Source: Cyanobacteriota bacterium
GTDB taxonomy: Bacteria; Cyanobacteriota; Cyanobacteriia; PCC-6307; Cyanobiaceae
Length of the DNA stretch: 64,000 nucleotides
Reading direction: 5' to 3'
NCBI GenBank assembly: GCA_046052125.1
Contig: JBJOMY010000006.1
Coordinates: 1 to 64,000 of the forward strand
Shown: piece after piece, positions 32,508 to 39,032 of the stretch
How the letters are laid out: every line of letters begins with the position of its first letter
Position numbering within the stretch: the first letter of the stretch is position 1
The notes under the pieces: model-generated
Told to the model about the DNA's origin: nothing
Seen by the model: the letters and a program-made list of their open reading frames with translations, nothing else
Databases searched by the model: none
Made by a program: the position numbers and the translations under genes

Positions 32508-33208
32508 ATCTCGAGCCGGCGACGCTCCTCATGCAAACGGCTGCGGCGCTGCTTGGCCTCACGCAGCATTTCGCGGCCGTCGCGCAGGTATCCGTCCACA
32601 TAGCCCATGGTGTAGCGCTCCAGCTCGGTGAGCGCGTCCTGCACTTGGGATAGGCAGTGATAGAGGCTCAGGCTGAAGCCATGCGCTGAAGCAGGTGCAG
32701 CCAGGGAGCGGTAGAGCGCTTCCACCTTCTCCATCCGGGCCTGGCTTTGCTCGAGGAAGGCGCAGAAGCTTTCCATGAGCTCGTCGTCGTAAGGATCCGC
32801 GGAGAGGGCCCTCAGCTGGGCGGGGAAAGGATTGATCACCTGCGCCAGCAAACGATCAATCGGTGCGTACACCTGCTGCAGCCAGGCCACCAGCTGGGCA
32901 TCACCGCGGGCTGCTTCGGCGGTGGCGGTGCGCGCCGCACGGCCGGCCGCAGCGGAACGTGCCGTTGTTGAGCGGGTTGGGTCAACGCGGCCGACTTGAT
33001 ACAGGCGATCGTGCTCAGCGCGGCGCTGGGCATCGCCGAGCACCTCCCAGGCTGCGTTGAGCTCGAGGATCCGATGCTCATCGCCACCAGCGTCCGGGTG
33101 GTGCTGTTTCACGAGAGCGCGGTACGCCGCCTTCAGCTCTGCGGCACTCGCTGAGCTGGCCACACCGAGCACCGTGTAGGGGTCGGGGGCGGACTGTGGC
33201 GAGATCAC
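32504..33208 (-). CDS. DnaJ-domain protein
   Basis: DPYTVLGV, HHPD, LNAAWEVL; C-terminal LSADPYDDELM; GTG start inferred. Confidence 0.88.
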   Translation of the reverse strand: MISPQSAPDPYTVLGVASSASAAELKAAYRALVKQHHPDAGGDEHRILELNAAWEVLGDAQRRAEHDRLYQVGRVDPTRSTTARSAAAGRAARTATAEAARGDAQLVAWLQQVYAPIDRLLAQVINPFPAQLRALSADPYDDELMESFCAFLEQSQARMEKVEALYRSLAAPASAHGFSLSLYHCLSQVQDALTELERYTMGYVDGYLRDGREMLREAKQRRSRLHEERRRLEI

Positions 33209-33271
33209 GCGCTCCGGCAGCGGCTGCAGACCATCTTCATCGTTGGACCATCGATGGCTGCGGAGGAACAC

Positions 33272-33300
33272 AAAAAAGCCCCCCGCACAAGCGGGAGGCC
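33272..33300 (-). terminator. Intrinsic terminator of the porin 1 transcript
   Basis: Minus strand GGCCUCCCGC-UUGU-GCGGGGGGCU followed by a U run. Confidence 0.88.
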
Positions 33301-33363
33301 AAGGAGTTTTGGTGTGTGAGTAAGCGCGAGGTGCGCGTGTGAGGAGTGCTTCAGATCCGAGGA
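33272..33363 (-). ncRNA. Candidate 3'UTR-derived Yfr1-like sRNA (porin 1)
   Basis: Exact ACTCCTCACAC at 33337-33347, plus ACTCACACAC (33312-33321) and ACTCCT (33302-33307), ahead of a terminator. Confidence 0.55.
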
Positions 33364-34953
33364 TCAGAAGCGGAAGGTGGTTTGCACCAGGTAGCCGAAG
33401 CTGTTGAAGGTGTTGCCGTTACCGGTGAATTCACCCTGGGGACGCGACAGCCAGAAGATGGCCGGGGTCACAGCGATGTTGTCGCTGACCTGGAACTTGT
33501 AGAACCATTCCCAGGCGTAGTTGCCATCGGCAGGGGTGTTATCAGTGCCGCCGGTCACAAAGGTGGGCTGACCCACAGCCATGCCGAGCACGTTGCCCTT
33601 CACGAAGGCATCCTTCCAGTTCAGACCCACCATCCAGGACTGGGTGGTGAGGTTCACATCGGTGGAATCGGTGCGGCTACCGCCCACATTGCTGGAGGTA
33701 CCAATACCCCAACCAGCGCTGATGGAAGGCATCCAACCGCTCTGGAGAGGCTGCCAGTAGCCAGCCAGGTTGAAGGCGTTGGTGCCATTGTAGCCGGTCG
33801 ACACGGCAGAGCGAGCGAAGGGGGTGCCGCCTACGCTCACGCCGCGGTTGTCATAGGTGTACAGACCGGTGAGGTTCCAGTTCTTGCCGGTGTAGGCCAG
33901 CTGAACAGAGCCGGAGGCAGCAGAGTTGCCGTTGGCGATACCACCAGCCTCGGGGCTGCCTACATCACCGTTGCCGGCCACGTAGTTAGCGCCAAAGCTG
34001 AAGCCTTTCTTACCTTCTTTCCACCAGAAACCAGCACCGGCACCGAGCACCTGGCTGTTGGCCTGAGGACCACCAGCGAACTGGAAGATCTTCAGGATCT
34101 TGTCACCGGTGTAGACCGAAGGCCACACGGCGAACATGTCGTCCTGACGGACCCGGGGGCCAGCCACGATTGTGACGTTCTTACCAACGGGGAACTTGTA
34201 GTAGAGGCGATTGATCGCTACGACATCGCCGCCGTCAGCATTGCCCAGGTTCTCCTGGAAAGCAGCGTCCAGCTGAGAGAGGCGGGTGGGTTCAGCACCA
34301 AAGGCAGAGTCGCTGAAGTTACCAGCGCGCAGCTGGGTACGGAGCAAATCCTTACCGGTGAAGCTGGTGTCGAAGTTCAGGCGAACGTCGTAGTTGAAGC
34401 TCAGCGCATTGCGCAGGGCGTACTCCTTACCAGCCGCGTTGGTGTAGGTGTTGTTGTCGGTGACCTGCGAACCACCAAAGGTCTGACCGCCCAGCACCCA
34501 GCGAGTGTCGGCGCGCAGTTTGGTGGTGGTGGAGAACTGGGTGGCTTCCAGCTCGCCCACTTTGGCCTCGAGGCCATCCACGCGACCCTTCAGAACGGCA
34601 AGTTCCTTTTCGAACTCGGCCATCAGGCGCTTCAGCTCGTCGGTCACTTCAGTGATCCGGTCGAGGCAAGCGTTCAGCAGTGCGGCCGCTTCATAGCGGG
34701 TCATCGCACGCTCACCGCGGTAGGTGCCGTTGGGGTAGCCAGCGACACAGCCGTAGCGCTCGATCAGGTTGCTCAGTGCCTGGTAAGCCCAGTCGGTGGG
34801 CTTCACATCGGAGAACTGGGTGATCGAAGTCACCTGCTCCTCAGAGCCGTACTGACTCACGCCAGCGATGTTCAGGTCAGCGGCAGATGCAGCCACAGGA
34901 GCCATCAGGCCCAGGGCAGCAGGTGCCAGAAGAAGCTTCTGGAACAGTTTCAT
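33364..34953 (-). CDS. SLH-domain outer membrane porin (Som/OprB family), copy 1
   Basis: Signal peptide, FSDVKPTDWAYQAL SLH domain, coiled coil, FSTTTKL, C-terminal TTFRF; GAGGA RBS. Confidence 0.95.
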   Translation of the reverse strand: MKLFQKLLLAPAALGLMAPVAASAADLNIAGVSQYGSEEQVTSITQFSDVKPTDWAYQALSNLIERYGCVAGYPNGTYRGERAMTRYEAAALLNACLDRITEVTDELKRLMAEFEKELAVLKGRVDGLEAKVGELEATQFSTTTKLRADTRWVLGGQTFGGSQVTDNNTYTNAAGKEYALRNALSFNYDVRLNFDTSFTGKDLLRTQLRAGNFSDSAFGAEPTRLSQLDAAFQENLGNADGGDVVAINRLYYKFPVGKNVTIVAGPRVRQDDMFAVWPSVYTGDKILKIFQFAGGPQANSQVLGAGAGFWWKEGKKGFSFGANYVAGNGDVGSPEAGGIANGNSAASGSVQLAYTGKNWNLTGLYTYDNRGVSVGGTPFARSAVSTGYNGTNAFNLAGYWQPLQSGWMPSISAGWGIGTSSNVGGSRTDSTDVNLTTQSWMVGLNWKDAFVKGNVLGMAVGQPTFVTGGTDNTPADGNYAWEWFYKFQVSDNIAVTPAIFWLSRPQGEFTGNGNTFNSFGYLVQTTFRF

Positions 34954-34967
34954 GGTCCTCACACCAA
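34520..34967. repeat. Near-identical 448-bp repeat, copy A (5' end of porin 1)
   Basis: Matches 36375-36822 with 14 mismatches by hand count, no indels. Confidence 0.9.
34956..34964 (-). promoter_or_regulatory. Yfr1-complementary site over the porin 1 RBS
   Basis: mRNA GUGUGAGGA-CC-AUG pairs with UCCUCACAC. Confidence 0.7.
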
Positions 34968-34987
34968 TTGAGGGAATCCCACAAGGG

Positions 34988-35003
34988 GATAAGTCAACTT
35001 ATC
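34988..35003. promoter_or_regulatory. AT-rich palindrome overlapping a putative -10 of porin 1
   Basis: GATAAGT-CA-ACTTATC; minus strand contains TAAGTT (TAN3T). Confidence 0.45.
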
Positions 35004-35075
35004 GCGCCGCAATAGCGCGGCACCTCGCAACAGCTACGGGCGGGTGTAGCGCAGAGCACACCGCAGAAAAGCAAT

Positions 35076-35101
35076 AAAAAACCCGCGACTGAAGCCGCGG
35101 G
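35076..35101 (-). terminator. Intrinsic terminator of the porin 2 transcript
   Basis: CCCGCGGC-UUCA-GUCGCGGG followed by U6. Confidence 0.85.
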
Positions 35102-35203
35102 CAGAGAGAGGACAAACGAGGTGTGGTGAGGAGACCAATTCAGGGGAAACTCTGAGGTATGAGGAGAGAGTTTCCCGACCGGATTGGCTTTTAGATCAAG
35201 AGA
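35076..35203 (-). ncRNA. Candidate 3'UTR-derived CU-rich (Yfr1-like) sRNA (porin 2)
   Basis: 10-bp stem displaying loop CUCCUCAUACCUC, then CUCCUCACCACAC, then terminator. Confidence 0.5.
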
Positions 35204-36808
35204 TCAGAACTTGAAGGTGGTCTTGATCAGGCCGCCGAAGTTGGTGACGGACTTGTCCTGGGACAGGCCCTTACCGACTTGACCATCAAGCTGGCTGAGG
35301 TAGAAGATCGCGGGGGTCACGCTGATGTTGTCGGTGACCTGGAACTTGTACCACCACTCCCAGGCGTAGTTGCCGTCGTTGGGGGTGTTGTTGGAGTTGT
35401 CGTTGTAGCGGGTCACGAAGGTGGCCTGACCAACGGCCATACCCAGGGCATTGCCCTTGATGAAGGCGTCATCCCACTGCAGACCCACGTACCAGGACTG
35501 GGACTGAGGACCGTCGAAACCGAAAGCATCATCCTGGCCGTTATAGCCGTTGATGCCCCAGCCGGTGCTGATGGAGGGAACCCAGCCGCTGGTGGAAGGC
35601 TGCCAGTAGCCGCTCACACCGAAGGAGTTGGTGCTGTTGGCAGCAGCGCCCAGGAACTGGTTCAGGATGGTGCCGTTACCAGAGGCAACGCCATTGCTGT
35701 AGTTGTAAGCAAAGGCGATACCAGCGTTATCGCCGGCGTAGCCGAGCTGAGCGGTGAAGGTCTCCTGGGATCCGGAGGTACCAATACCGCCGACTTCAGG
35801 TGCGCCCACGTCACCGTTAGCAGCCACGTAGTTGAGGCTGAAGCTGAAGCCGTTCTTCTCGTACCACACACCGGCACCTGCACCCAGGTTCAGGTTGTAG
35901 GTACCAGGAGCACCGGCGTAGGTGAAGATGTCGAGGACGGTGTCAGCGGGATACACGCTGGGCCACATGGCCAGCATGTCGTCCTGACGAACCTTGGCGC
36001 CCACGGTGACGGTGATGTTGTCACCAACAGGGAACTGATAGAAGAGGCGGTTGATGGCCACCACGTCGCCGCCATCAGCGTTGCCCATCTCTTCCTGGAA
36101 GGCCACTTCCAGGTTGTTCAGAGCAGAGACACCGCCCACTGCGCCATCGGTGCTGCCATAAGCAGTTGCACTACCGAAAGCGGAATCGGCAAAGTTACCG
36201 GCACGCAGAGTGGTGCGCAGCAGGTCCTTACCGGTGAAGCTGGTGTCGAAGTTCAGGCGAACGTCGTAGTTGAAGGTGGTTGCACCCTCATCAGCCTTGT
36301 AGGCGTTAGCGAGAGTGGTGTTGCTGCCGCCGAAGCTGTTAGCGCCGAGCACGAAGGTGGCGATGCCCTTCAGCTTGGTGGTGGTGGAGAACTGAGTGGC
36401 TTCCAGCTCACCCACTTTGGCCTCGAGGCCATCCACGCGGCCCTTCAGAACGGCGAGTTCCTTTTCGAACTCCTTCATCAGGCGCTTCAGCTCGTCGGTC
36501 ACTTCGGTGATCCGGTCGAGGCAGGCGTTCAGCAGTGCGGCCGCTTCATAGCGGGTCATCGCACGCTCACCGCGGTAGGTGCCGTTGGGGTAGCCAGCGA
36601 CGCAGCCGTAGCGCTCGATCAGGTTGCTCAGCGCCTGGTAAGCCCAGTCGGTGGGCTTCACATCGGAGAACTGGGTGATCGAAGTCACCTGCTCCTCAGA
36701 GCCGTACTGGCTGACGCCAGCGATGTTCAGGTCAGCGGCAGACGCAGCCACAGGAGCCATCAGGCCCAGGGCAGCAGGTGCCAGAAGAAGCTTCTGGAAC
36801 AGTTTCAT
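35204..36808 (-). CDS. SLH-domain outer membrane porin (Som/OprB family), copy 2
   Basis: Same N-terminus as copy 1, divergent barrel, C-terminal KTTFKF. Confidence 0.95.
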   Translation of the reverse strand: MKLFQKLLLAPAALGLMAPVAASAADLNIAGVSQYGSEEQVTSITQFSDVKPTDWAYQALSNLIERYGCVAGYPNGTYRGERAMTRYEAAALLNACLDRITEVTDELKRLMKEFEKELAVLKGRVDGLEAKVGELEATQFSTTTKLKGIATFVLGANSFGGSNTTLANAYKADEGATTFNYDVRLNFDTSFTGKDLLRTTLRAGNFADSAFGSATAYGSTDGAVGGVSALNNLEVAFQEEMGNADGGDVVAINRLFYQFPVGDNITVTVGAKVRQDDMLAMWPSVYPADTVLDIFTYAGAPGTYNLNLGAGAGVWYEKNGFSFSLNYVAANGDVGAPEVGGIGTSGSQETFTAQLGYAGDNAGIAFAYNYSNGVASGNGTILNQFLGAAANSTNSFGVSGYWQPSTSGWVPSISTGWGINGYNGQDDAFGFDGPQSQSWYVGLQWDDAFIKGNALGMAVGQATFVTRYNDNSNNTPNDGNYAWEWWYKFQVTDNISVTPAIFYLSQLDGQVGKGLSQDKSVTNFGGLIKTTFKF

Positions 36809-36822
36809 GGTCCTCACACCAA
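36375..36822. repeat. Near-identical 448-bp repeat, copy B (5' end of porin 2)
   Basis: Offset 1855 bp from copy A. Confidence 0.9.
36811..36819 (-). promoter_or_regulatory. Yfr1-complementary site over the porin 2 RBS
   Basis: mRNA GUGUGAGGA-CC-AUG. Confidence 0.7.
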
Positions 36823-36913
36823 AAGAGGAATTGGGCGCAATGCGCCGTGTGGCCATCTTGCAGGCCATGCCAGAGGCAACACAGAGAACCTGTGCCACAA
36901 ACCGCAATGGCAT

Positions 36914-36927
36914 GTAGCGATCGATAC
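36914..36927. promoter_or_regulatory. Candidate NtcA box
   Basis: GTA-gcgatcga-TAC (GTA-N8-TAC) between porin 2 and the divergent GT-C gene. Confidence 0.5.
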
Positions 36928-36989
36928 CCGGAAGCTGCGCGGCCTCCTTCGCCCAGACTTGCCTTCTTCTCTCCGAGCGGCGGCTGCCC

Positions 36990-39032
36990 GTGTTGAAGCG
37001 ATCGCCCTGGCTGTGGTGGCTGGTGCTCCTGGGGATCTGGCTGCTGGCCAGCGCCGCAGATCACACCTGGCTCCAGGTGGACCAGCGCCTGCCGGCCTGG
37101 GATCAGGCCGACTATCTCAATAGCGCCATTGATCACGGCCGAGCCCTGGGGCTGCTGCGCGGCGGCAGCTGGCCGGGCTGGCAAGGTCTGCTGGATCTCT
37201 CTCCCAAGATTCCGCCCCTCTCCTCGCTGGTGAGCGGCACGGTGATGGCGGTGACCGGTGAAGACGCCGATGCGGCCAGCTGGGCACTGAGCCTCTGGCA
37301 TGGCTTGCTGCTGCTGGTGGTAGCCCTCTGGGGCCGGCAACTACTCACGCCGGGCTTTGGGCTGCTCGCGGCAACCCTGGTGGCCCTGGCGCCAGCGCTG
37401 AGCGGCCTGCGGGTGGATTTCACCCTCGACATGCCCCTCACCGCCAGCTGCAGCCTGGCCCTGTGGCTGCTCTGGCGCTGGCAGCGCCCGCTGCACGGCG
37501 GCCGCTGGAGCCAAGCCCTGGCCGCTGGGGCCGCCGTTGCCGCGGCCCTCTTGATCAAGCAGAGCGCCCTGCTCGTGCTGGCCTTACCAGCGCTTTGGAG
37601 CTTTGGCCAAGCCCAGGCGCTTCCGCGCAGGCGCTGGCAGGCCTGGGCCGCACTAGCGCTGGTGTTGGCCCTGCTGCTGCCCTGGCTGCATCACAACTGG
37701 ATAACCACCTTGGGCGGCACGGAACGAGCCGTGATCACCTCCGGCGCCGATGAGGGCGATCCAGGCAGCCTCGATCCCCGGAGCCTGATCTGGTACCCGC
37801 GGCTCTGGGGCCAACAGCTGGGCGCCGCCACGCTGGCGGCTGGGCTGGCGGGCCTGGCCCTGTTGGGCTGGGAGCACCGCGGCCGCTGGCGGCAGCGCTG
37901 GCCCGCCGGCTGGGCCTGGCTGCTCGGTGTGGCGATCAGCGGCTGGCTCAGCACCAGCCTCAGCCCCAACAAAGACGAGCGCTACATCGCGCCAGTGCTT
38001 CCTTTATTAGTTCTGTTGCTCACGCGCGGCTGGTGGGCCCTGGGCAGCTGGATCGCCCAGCGCGGCGATGGGCGCTGGGCAGGGGGCGCCCTGGCGCTCG
38101 GATTAGCGAGCGCCGCTGGGATCAATGCCGGCGCCAGCCTCGCTCAGCTCGATCGCCAGCCCCCTTCGAGCGTGGTGGAGGCCATGGGCAGCCTGCGCCA
38201 GAGGGTGGGGAACGAACCCGCCACCCTGCTGATCACCGCCAGCAGCCCCGATCTCAACGAGCACACCCTCACGCTGTTGGGCCGCCAGCAAGGCGGGCAG
38301 ATCCTGGTGCGGCGGCTGGGGCGCAACCCCGGCTCTCAGGAGCTGGCCCTGGATCAGGGCCGTTGGTGGCTAATCGCCAGCGGCGACCAGGGCACTACCC
38401 GTCCATCAGCTCGGGCCCTGAGCCGAGCCGTGCGCCGCGATGGCCGCTACGAGCGGGTGCAGATCTGGCCGTGGAGCAAGCAACGCCAGCTCGAGCTCTG
38501 GCGCCGTAAACCCTCCGCGCCTGAGCCCCAGAGCTTCCAGCAGGGCTTCATCCGCCTGGCGCGGGGGATGGAACAGGGCCCCCGCGGGTTGCAGTCCGTG
38601 TTTGCCGCCATCGGCCCCTGGCATCTGCTCGATCCCCGCTTCAGCTACCAGCAAGACGTGCAGCGCTGGGCCAACGCCCAACTGCAACGCAACCCGAGTG
38701 ATCGCGATGCCCTCTGGAGCCTGGCCCTGGTGGCCGTGCTCCAAAACCGAGCCCAGCAGGCTGACCAGTGGTTTGCCCGGCTGGAGCAGGTGGAAGGCAG
38801 CGGCCACTGGGCTAGTGCCTACCGGAGCGTGGTGCAACTGGCGGGCTGGAACAGCTGCGGCGCGGCCCGCGTGGCTGAAACCACCAGCGCTGATCCCGCC
38901 ACCGGCTCAGTGCTCACGGCCCTGCGCGACCTCAGCCGCAGCCTCTGCTTCGACCCGCGAGGCCCCGCGGCACTGCAGCGCAGCCTGCCCGCAGCCATCA
39001 ACACCGTTAACAGCGGCCTCAAGCAACCGTGA
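36990..39032 (+). CDS. ArnT/PMT-like (GT-C) lipid-carrier-dependent glycosyltransferase
   Basis: WDQADY after TM1, KIPPL, LDMP, LIKQ, NKDERYIAP; many TMs plus soluble C-terminal domain. Confidence 0.8.
   Translation: MLKRSPWLWWLVLLGIWLLASAADHTWLQVDQRLPAWDQADYLNSAIDHGRALGLLRGGSWPGWQGLLDLSPKIPPLSSLVSGTVMAVTGEDADAASWALSLWHGLLLLVVALWGRQLLTPGFGLLAATLVALAPALSGLRVDFTLDMPLTASCSLALWLLWRWQRPLHGGRWSQALAAGAAVAAALLIKQSALLVLALPALWSFGQAQALPRRRWQAWAALALVLALLLPWLHHNWITTLGGTERAVITSGADEGDPGSLDPRSLIWYPRLWGQQLGAATLAAGLAGLALLGWEHRGRWRQRWPAGWAWLLGVAISGWLSTSLSPNKDERYIAPVLPLLVLLLTRGWWALGSWIAQRGDGRWAGGALALGLASAAGINAGASLAQLDRQPPSSVVEAMGSLRQRVGNEPATLLITASSPDLNEHTLTLLGRQQGGQILVRRLGRNPGSQELALDQGRWWLIASGDQGTTRPSARALSRAVRRDGRYERVQIWPWSKQRQLELWRRKPSAPEPQSFQQGFIRLARGMEQGPRGLQSVFAAIGPWHLLDPRFSYQQDVQRWANAQLQRNPSDRDALWSLALVAVLQNRAQQADQWFARLEQVEGSGHWASAYRSVVQLAGWNSCGAARVAETTSADPATGSVLTALRDLSRSLCFDPRGPAALQRSLPAAINTVNSGLKQP

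Follow-up and report, generated by a model that had tools for sequence, protein, structure and literature searches.

Why should the 3′ untranslated region (UTR) of a porin mRNA present, apparently in a hairpin loop, a sequence that could pair with the ribosome-binding site (RBS) at the start of that same message? The question is raised by two tandem porin genes in the 64,000-nt stretch of DNA analysed here (the window), which belongs to a GC-rich (64–67%) genome of 2.64 Mb, picocyanobacterial to judge by its genes (the window genome). Both genes lie on the minus strand and encode SLH and OprB domains, with porin 2 upstream of porin 1 and a DnaJ-domain gene following; the stretch under study is the 128 nt from the porin 2 stop codon to the terminator (35076..35203, minus strand). 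A preliminary description had read this segment as a structured display of an anti-RBS core, which recurred on another scaffold behind porin 1, and had suggested that the two paralogues form a reciprocal regulation pair.

The porin 2 tail and its seed

Among cyanobacterial sRNAs, Yfr1 and Yfr2 are the most widespread. We take the Rfam family Cyano-1 to be Yfr2, an assignment consistent with the 5′-end and loop motifs given in earlier work (PMC2662882, PMC2518516). The motif in the porin tail is the seed of Yfr1, ACUCCUCACAC (PMC2190773). Yfr1 represses the som porin leaders of MED4 at the RBS (PMC2796815), and the 5′ end of Yfr2 pairs with the Yfr1 seed and cancels som repression; once paired with RNAs that carry the Yfr1 motif, Yfr2 becomes protected from RNase E (PMC6778093). 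In Yfr10, the Yfr1/Yfr10 seed is displayed in a hairpin loop (PMC6778093, PMC2518516). Since the Yfr1 seed fits either of them, both the porin RBS and Yfr2 are candidates for the partner of the tail motif. The preliminary description was right about the anti-RBS core itself but did not recognise its Yfr1/Yfr10 identity, and it left Yfr2 out of consideration. The features of the locus are listed here in the order of transcription.

36811..36820, minus strand: porin 2 leader site GGUGUGAGGA, spanning the RBS; this is the Yfr1 target site described for the MED4 som genes (PMC2796815)
35204..36808, minus strand: porin 2 coding sequence, 534 aa, SLH and OprB, a Som-type outer-membrane porin; stop codon at 35204–35206
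35134..35188, minus strand: display hairpin of the porin 2 3′ UTR (fold prediction), with outer helix GCCAAU/AUUGGU and an inner 10-bp stem
35176–35167, minus strand: 5′ arm of the inner stem, GGGAAACUCU, 10 bp
35154..35166, minus strand: site 1, the 13-nt loop CUCCUCAUACCUC, with predicted pairing to both the Yfr2 5′ end and the porin RBS
35153–35144, minus strand: 3′ arm of the inner stem, AGAGUUUCCC, 10 bp
35120..35136, minus strand: site 2, unpaired GGUCUCCUCACCACACC, containing GUCUCCUCAC (35135–35126)
35102..35121, minus strand: pyrimidine tract CCUCGUUUGUCCUCUCUCUG, whose complementarity to the central loop of the window genome's Yfr2 is not conserved
35076..35102, minus strand: porin 2 intrinsic terminator, with the hairpin at 35102–35081 plus a U-tract
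34956..34965, minus strand: porin 1 leader site GGUGUGAGGA, its core as in porin 2 (from sequence)
33364..34953, minus strand: porin 1 coding sequence, 529 aa, SLH and OprB, 65% identical to porin 2
33337..33349, minus strand: porin 1 3′ UTR site GCACUCCUCACAC, fully complementary over 13 nt to the 5′ end of the other Yfr2 copy
33271..33300, minus strand: porin 1 intrinsic terminator (terminator prediction)

The inner stem with its loop, the outer helix, the additional motifs and the terminator had all been placed correctly in the preliminary description, on the minus strand. The outer (G)CCAAU/AUUGG(U) helix closes the porin 2 hairpin in the MFE and centroid structures alike, and in the predicted fold both GGUCUCCUCACCACACC and GUCCUCUCUCU fall in an unpaired linker with the terminator downstream. 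The UTR folds with z = −4.57 (134 nt) or −5.15 (115 nt), none of 200 shuffles being equally stable. Within site 2, the 10 nt of GUCUCCUCAC are fully complementary to one of the window genome's Yfr2 copies. The porin 1 UTR has, as had been noticed before, a different scaffold on which the core recurs, here as an exact Yfr1 undecamer (33347–33337). The heptamer CUCCUCA alone is common in the window genome, with 400 sites, so the case must stand on position and on conservation in homologues.

Close environmental strains carry a U>C change at 35159 that converts the loop to CUCCUCACAC (contigs, three of four RNA runs). One RNA-library contig, 35165–35338, crosses the porin 2 stop codon, though such contigs reveal neither strand nor ends; low contig cover from the porin 2 terminator to porin 1, together with an adapter end at 35110 (two studies), was considered and rejected as evidence of a transcript end. 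No sigma-70-type promoter was found in 33150–37000, in a scan that has little power in cyanobacteria.

Two other inverted repeats were seen at the locus. In the porin leaders, CCUC lies upstream of the RBS GAGG (36811–36829 and 34956–34972, minus strand), and a weak CCUC..GAGG hairpin over the RBS is possible in 74 of 138 homologues; it folds no better than shuffles in the window genome and was rejected as a stable element. A GAUC..GAUC repeat straddling or following the stop codon (35194–35206, minus strand), a possible boundary element, occurs in 20 of the 43 porins that belong to the two main groups and come from the same genus; the hairpin is weak, again no better than shuffles in the window genome, and was set aside. 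A third, more distant porin gene lies at G000:C4:253594-257040, with a short porin N-terminal piece nearby in two frames.

Could the tail simply be a further copy of Yfr1? The window genome has one Yfr1 above the Rfam cut-off (C5:46903–46959), located on contig C5 between guaB and trxA (gene names from translations), and two Cyano-1/Yfr2 genes. Rfam scans placed no family at the porin tails and gave, elsewhere in the locus and window, only weak below-threshold matches and a tRNA; neither tail matches the Yfr1 model RF01116 at E up to 10 or at the gathering level. The porin 2 tail carries CUCCUCAUAC inside the hairpin loop and UCUCCUCACC in the linker, not the exact ACUCCUCACAC that Yfr1 holds unpaired between two stem-loops, and it follows a porin stop codon instead of lying between guaB and trxA. 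Judged by its sequence, the element resembles a Yfr10-type RNA joined to the end of an mRNA, and is not Yfr1.

The comparison with both RNAs is instructive in its details. As in the Yfr10-type RNAs (Yfr10, Yfr12 and Yfr18 of Prochlorococcus MED4; “Yfr10-like”; PMC2518516, PMC6778093), the Yfr1 motif is presented by a hairpin loop whose scaffold is not conserved, is complementary to the Yfr2 5′ end (here by predicted duplexes) and shows C-to-U variants that keep the pairing. Those RNAs, however, are stand-alone sRNAs that adjoin yfr2 genes in MED4, whereas the element here is the tail of a Yfr1-repressed mRNA; the porin tail is also often multi-site, and in the marine genus g28 (below) its seed fits Yfr2 without the bulge that Yfr1 needs. 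With Yfr1 the tails share the seed, the exact undecamer (in porin 1) and the predicted ability to pair with porin leaders and Yfr2; they differ in locus and in the absence of a model match, and the porin 2 loop is a 1-nt variant.

Conservation among porin homologues

Our porin set comprises 218 genes from 93 genomes, the best of longer match lists (84 and 335 further matches lie beyond it); drawn from part of the matches listed, it is a non-random sample in which kin are not independent. Six out-of-family porin genes were excluded from the counts, and counts out of 138 refer to the genes with both a leader (RBS) site and a detected terminator. The strict motif CCUCACA lies between stop codon and terminator in 72 of the 138 sampled picocyanobacterial porin UTRs; it is present in 4 of 435 terminator-upstream windows of the window genome, one of them that of porin 1, and in 3 of 433 when the porins are left out. 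Among the 105 permutations of this heptamer, only the overlapping CUCACAC (76) and CCUCACA (72) are frequent in the porin UTRs, the median being 1. A wider motif set, which includes wobble variants and was defined after the data were seen, matched 63 of 92 genes in the porin-2 clade (19 of 22 genera) and 45 of 54 in the porin-1 groups, with 4 of 40 in an accessory clade and 8 of 26 among the others. At least two sites occur in 32 of the 138 porin UTRs.

The motif is missing from 48 of 149 genes that keep the leader site and is sporadic outside the family (a motif-like match in 7 of 51 porins from 13 genomes, some probably by chance), which speaks against generality. Five porin-2-clade copies on at least three separate branches (L010, L011, L039, L088 and L098) have neither leader site nor tail motif, and may be coding-only duplications gone from the circuit. 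Four out-of-family porin tails—L397 (genome G028), L029, L402 and L406—carry the motif ahead of a terminator; in genome G028, the tail UUCCUCACC fits the same genome's GGUGAGGAG-type Yfr2.

Display of the motif is itself a shared trait of the porin-2 clade, where 47 of 57 UTRs with motif and terminator are predicted to hold it in a loop closed by a stem of at least 5 bp, against 3.8 expected from flank shuffles. The clade uses 30 different inner 5-bp stems, and the five innermost positions show all four Watson–Crick pair types; since the stems were taken from predicted folds, this demonstrates free exchange and is not an independent covariation statistic. The predicted mean unpaired probability of the motif is 0.87 versus 0.54. 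Taken together, the retained loop motif, the freely varying stems and the predicted exposure support the earlier proposal of selection on an exposed seed, and the opposite pattern, a stem kept while its motif is lost, was not what we saw in most relatives. We conclude from these homologues that the porin 3′ UTR element is real and conserved.

Substitutions within the sites are of both kinds: 69 wobble-compatible and 66 pair-breaking changes were counted among 190 sites, about 37 of these sites being chance matches. The spectrum is thus 51% compatible versus 26% in shuffles, a difference to which transition bias and local GCGC stems may contribute.

Predicted pairing with Yfr2 and with the porin RBS

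In the window genome, the porin 2 loop is predicted to form 10 bp with either leader (−17.5 kcal/mol; net −10.9 and −11.4 after leader opening, which costs about 6 kcal/mol) and 11 bp with one Yfr2 (net −15.4 kcal/mol). Net predicted pairing with Yfr2 amounts to −17.2 kcal/mol for the porin 1 tail and −15.4 kcal/mol for that of porin 2, versus −9.4 to −11.4 kcal/mol with the leaders. Ranked among 435 terminator windows, the two porin UTRs come first and third for pairing with the Yfr2 5′ end and, with target opening ignored, second and first for pairing with the RBS. Two results for the porin 2 loop, its 10-bp match to the RBS and its first rank in this latter comparison, count against a Yfr2 sponge and agree with the original claim that the loop can pair with a porin RBS. 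The proposed reciprocal pair with different target ranges fares less well: both leaders end in UUGGUGUGAGGACC-AUG, are identical over it and give the same duplex. With the target site shared, a reciprocal pair is not supported, and paralogue-specific targeting is rejected.

Two further ideas about pairing were abandoned. Bipartite binding that also engages the Yfr2 central loop, though striking in the window genome, is not a general feature, since only 4 of the 112 UTRs with the motif contain CCUCGUU (some of them shortened by an early terminator call) and central-loop pairing gains just −0.65 kcal/mol over shuffles. Matching of the flanks to genus-specific RBS variants (GAGGAC, GAGGAA or GAGGAU) was not seen.

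Three comparisons across genomes separate the two candidate partners. The first concerns the flanks of the motif and uses Yfr2 5′ ends from the 80 genomes searched. Against controls with the 7-nt core fixed and the flanks shuffled, the real flanks strengthen pairing to the genome's own Yfr2 5′ end by −3.55 kcal/mol (90% of 103 UTRs; 18 of 20 genera) but pairing to its own RBS by only −0.63 kcal/mol (57% of 90; 12 of 19 genera), and Yfr2 pairing beats RBS pairing in 84 of 90 UTRs. Two bases 5′ of the core, G, which most RBSs need, is found at 6 of 99 sites versus a background of 17%, and C or U, which fit Yfr2, at 84 of 99; the depletion of G could instead come from keeping the loop open.

The second comparison concerns four genera (g30, g34, g42 and g49) in which the only Yfr2 found starts GUGUGAGGGG, while RBS and Yfr1 keep the A-type form where checked. 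In 6 of 8 loops from these genera the matching position is C, versus 9 of 34 elsewhere (p = 0.016 by site). Counted by genus, the figures are 3 of 4 versus 2 of 10 (p = 0.095); with this value, with g42 and g49 being sister groups, and with g24 and g58 having the C without that change in Yfr2, the covariation only suggests that the porin loops follow the GUGUGAGGGG-type Yfr2.

The strongest of the three comparisons, albeit one from a single lineage, comes from g28, an AT-rich marine genus with genomes of 1.4–1.9 Mb. Among the Yfr2-type matches listed for g28, most start GUGUGUAGGAG and the remainder mainly GUGUGAAGGAG; the g28 Yfr2 has an extra base, and its 5′ end GUGUGUAGGAG is the one published for Prochlorococcus MED4. 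Of 61 genomes of the same genus, 18 have UCUUACACAC just ahead of a terminator and none has the UCCUCACAC form there; narrow patterns were used, so the 43 of 61 genomes without a match are not absences, and further g28 tail variants also fit Yfr2. All 20 of the UCUUACACAC sites examined follow a porin C-terminus (19 by BLAST, one by reading frame). A genome-wide count in five g28 genomes placed the decamer in porin tails at 10 of its 11 occurrences; of nine occurrences of GUGUGUAGGA, six are Yfr2 5′ ends and none is a porin leader.

What changed in g28 can be read from the three RNAs together. Its Yfr1 keeps ACUCCUCACAC in five of five cases and pairs equally with Yfr2 (−16.9) and the RBS (−16.7), whereas the tail motif is predicted to pair with Yfr2 unbulged (−15.1) and with the RBS only when bulged (−10.0). 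With Yfr1 unchanged, the tail has therefore left Yfr1 and the common RBS behind and followed Yfr2. The separation is not complete, as some g28 leaders (of the GUGUGUGA type) pair with the tail as well as Yfr2 does, and one g28 tail prefers its own leader (−15.2 versus −13.2 for Yfr2). Motif-positive g28 tails are short and have no long display hairpin, so that what they have in common with the window element is site and position, not scaffold.

The UTR sites are thus conserved and, by prediction, exposed, with variants that follow Yfr2, and the comparison between genomes shows the element tracking the Yfr2 5′ end more closely than the RBS. The exposed seed of the preliminary description is thereby retained, with another partner in front. 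We consider that Yfr2 is probably a real partner of the porin 3′ UTR.

Published pull-down data for MED4 bear on the same point. With Yfr2 as bait, the 3′-most peaks of the som genes PMM1119 and PMM1121 average 3.2 and 2.2 and the 5′-most peaks 1.0 and 0.9, the peaks being sorted by their position in the gene and not by the motif (PMC6778093). In each of the 3′ averages a single replicate out of two carries the enrichment (1.0 and 5.4; 0.86 and 3.45). The 3′-most PMM1119 peak is also 2.3-fold enriched with Yfr1 as bait.

Possible consequences of the proposed Yfr2 binding

With Yfr2 as partner, the porin 3′ UTR would offer one to three single-stranded docking sites for the Yfr2 5′ end, and in the porin-2 clade the hairpin would keep the first of these open. 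The abundant porin mRNA, or a stable 3′ fragment of it, could then titrate Yfr2; Yfr1 would be freed and would repress porin translation, such that more porin mRNA would damp porin synthesis. Direct pairing of the tail with a porin RBS is a possible weaker second route of the same sign, and since sponging and direct RBS repression would both be negative feedback, the two may coexist. We tentatively favour sponging of Yfr2 with negative feedback as the main outcome. A bolder extension, possible though harder to credit, is that porin tails are the principal natural Yfr2 ligands across picocyanobacteria, from freshwater Cyanobium-type genomes to the AT-rich marine genus, closing an all-RNA loop in which the porin tail inhibits Yfr2, Yfr2 inhibits Yfr1 and Yfr1 inhibits the porin RBS; one message would then carry both a 5′ repressor target and a co-evolving 3′ anti-repressor trap. 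If true, porin transcription would also determine the ratio of free Yfr1 to free Yfr2 that their many other targets meet, and mRNA-encoded feedback would buffer the outer-membrane permeability of globally abundant picocyanobacteria.

The roles might also be reversed, with Yfr2 as the regulator and the porin mRNA as its target: binding at the tail would alter mRNA stability, or would displace a tail–leader pairing and so activate translation, which together with the action of Yfr2 on Yfr1 would make a coherent feed-forward loop. All of the Yfr2 covariation fits this reading equally well, and sequence cannot separate it from sponging. It would also suit the MED4 som mRNA, which is among the most abundant and is unusually long-lived, and the very stable Yfr2 (PMC2897979), while a site that pairs with both the RBS and Yfr2, and with Yfr2 more strongly, is what a displacement switch requires. 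We nevertheless think it unlikely, because multiple sites and open-loop display resemble a capture device and because the known effect of pairing falls on Yfr2, which RNAs with the Yfr1 motif shield from RNase E (PMC6778093).

Less likely again is the model of the preliminary description, in which the tail, or an sRNA derived from this 3′ end, acts as a Yfr1 mimic that pairs directly with porin RBSs for auto- or cross-repression. The 10-bp duplex with both leaders and the top two ranks among 435 windows for RBS pairing are what such a mimic predicts, the Yfr1 seed is known to repress som leaders (PMC2796815), and OppZ and CarZ provide a precedent (PMC9438474). Flanks that do not lengthen RBS pairing are at odds with it, however, as are a g28 tail that moved off the common RBS and Yfr1, the cost of leader opening, and leaders too alike for any reciprocal specificity. 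Of the 28 porins without a leader site, 27 are also without the tail motif, as direct pairing would have it, but such joint absence is in any case what one would see if coding sequences had been duplicated to new loci and their UTRs left behind (from the tree). A protein-binding site in common with Yfr1, a possibility that Voss et al. raised for the Yfr1 motif (PMC2190773), or an element that is mainly a stabilising 3′ structure would be compatible with the mixed substitutions counted above, but both are very unlikely, as a stabilising hairpin does not explain one conserved loop on 30 stems or the unstructured porin-1-type and g28 sites, and a shared protein cannot explain a g28 tail that differs from Yfr1 exactly where Yfr2 changed.

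Sponging of Yfr2 would have relatives among the mRNA-derived sponges SroC, PspH and SkatA (PMC9438474), in which the 3′ region of an mRNA captures an sRNA, with feedback on the gene from which that mRNA comes; as in 3′ UTR-derived sponges, the UTR seed here is conserved above background and complementary to an sRNA. SroC and SkatA, however, sponge a repressor and relieve their parent, whereas the sRNA bound here would be an anti-repressor, so that the predicted feedback is negative; release of a tail fragment is putative. Negative autoregulation from an mRNA 3′ end, as predicted here, is known for OppZ/CarZ of Vibrio cholerae, where OppZ, in dependence on Hfq and RNase E, pairs directly with the mRNA of its own operon (PMC9438474), whereas the better-supported partner of the porin tail is another sRNA.

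In the available portions of the literature covered (including PMC6974561, PMC6191309, PMC5069720, PMC7368042, PMC9438474 and PMC12873609), there is no report of the motif or of a Yfr2 site in porin 3′ UTRs; figure S7 of PMC6778093, on Yfr10-like RNAs, and the supplement of PMC12873609, whose main text as available does not mention porins, could list one. The mode of action of Prochlorococcus sRNAs has been termed enigmatic (PMC6778093). A conserved Yfr2 site that co-varies with its partner and sits at the 3′ end of the best-validated target of Yfr1 would be a precise, mutable handle on how Yfr2 acts on mRNAs, and the natural compensatory pairs (GUGUGAGGAG with CUCCUCACAC, and GUGUGUAGGA with UCUUACACAC) could be swapped in the existing E. 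coli reporter.

Several other elements with related motifs were seen in the window genome (G000), outside the window. Three near-identical elements on the minus strand of contig C1, near 716353, 618759 and 164474, hold the exact Yfr1 undecamer in a 12-nt hairpin loop; the loop sequence GCACUCCUCACAC is a 13-nt complement of one Yfr2 copy, and two of the three lie upstream of near-identical 249-aa ORFs, making them candidate Yfr10-like sRNAs. A second match to the Yfr1 model, below threshold, lies at G000:C4:319202-319261 on the minus strand (L209) and shows UUCCUCACAC unpaired between two hairpins, plus a terminator; it is a candidate Yfr1-like RNA. Finally, two non-porin 3′ ends on the minus strand of C1 have CCUCACA before the terminator (near 457704 and 266562, the latter about 1.8 kb from a Yfr2 gene), and mRNAs other than the porin messages may also carry Yfr2 sites in their tails.
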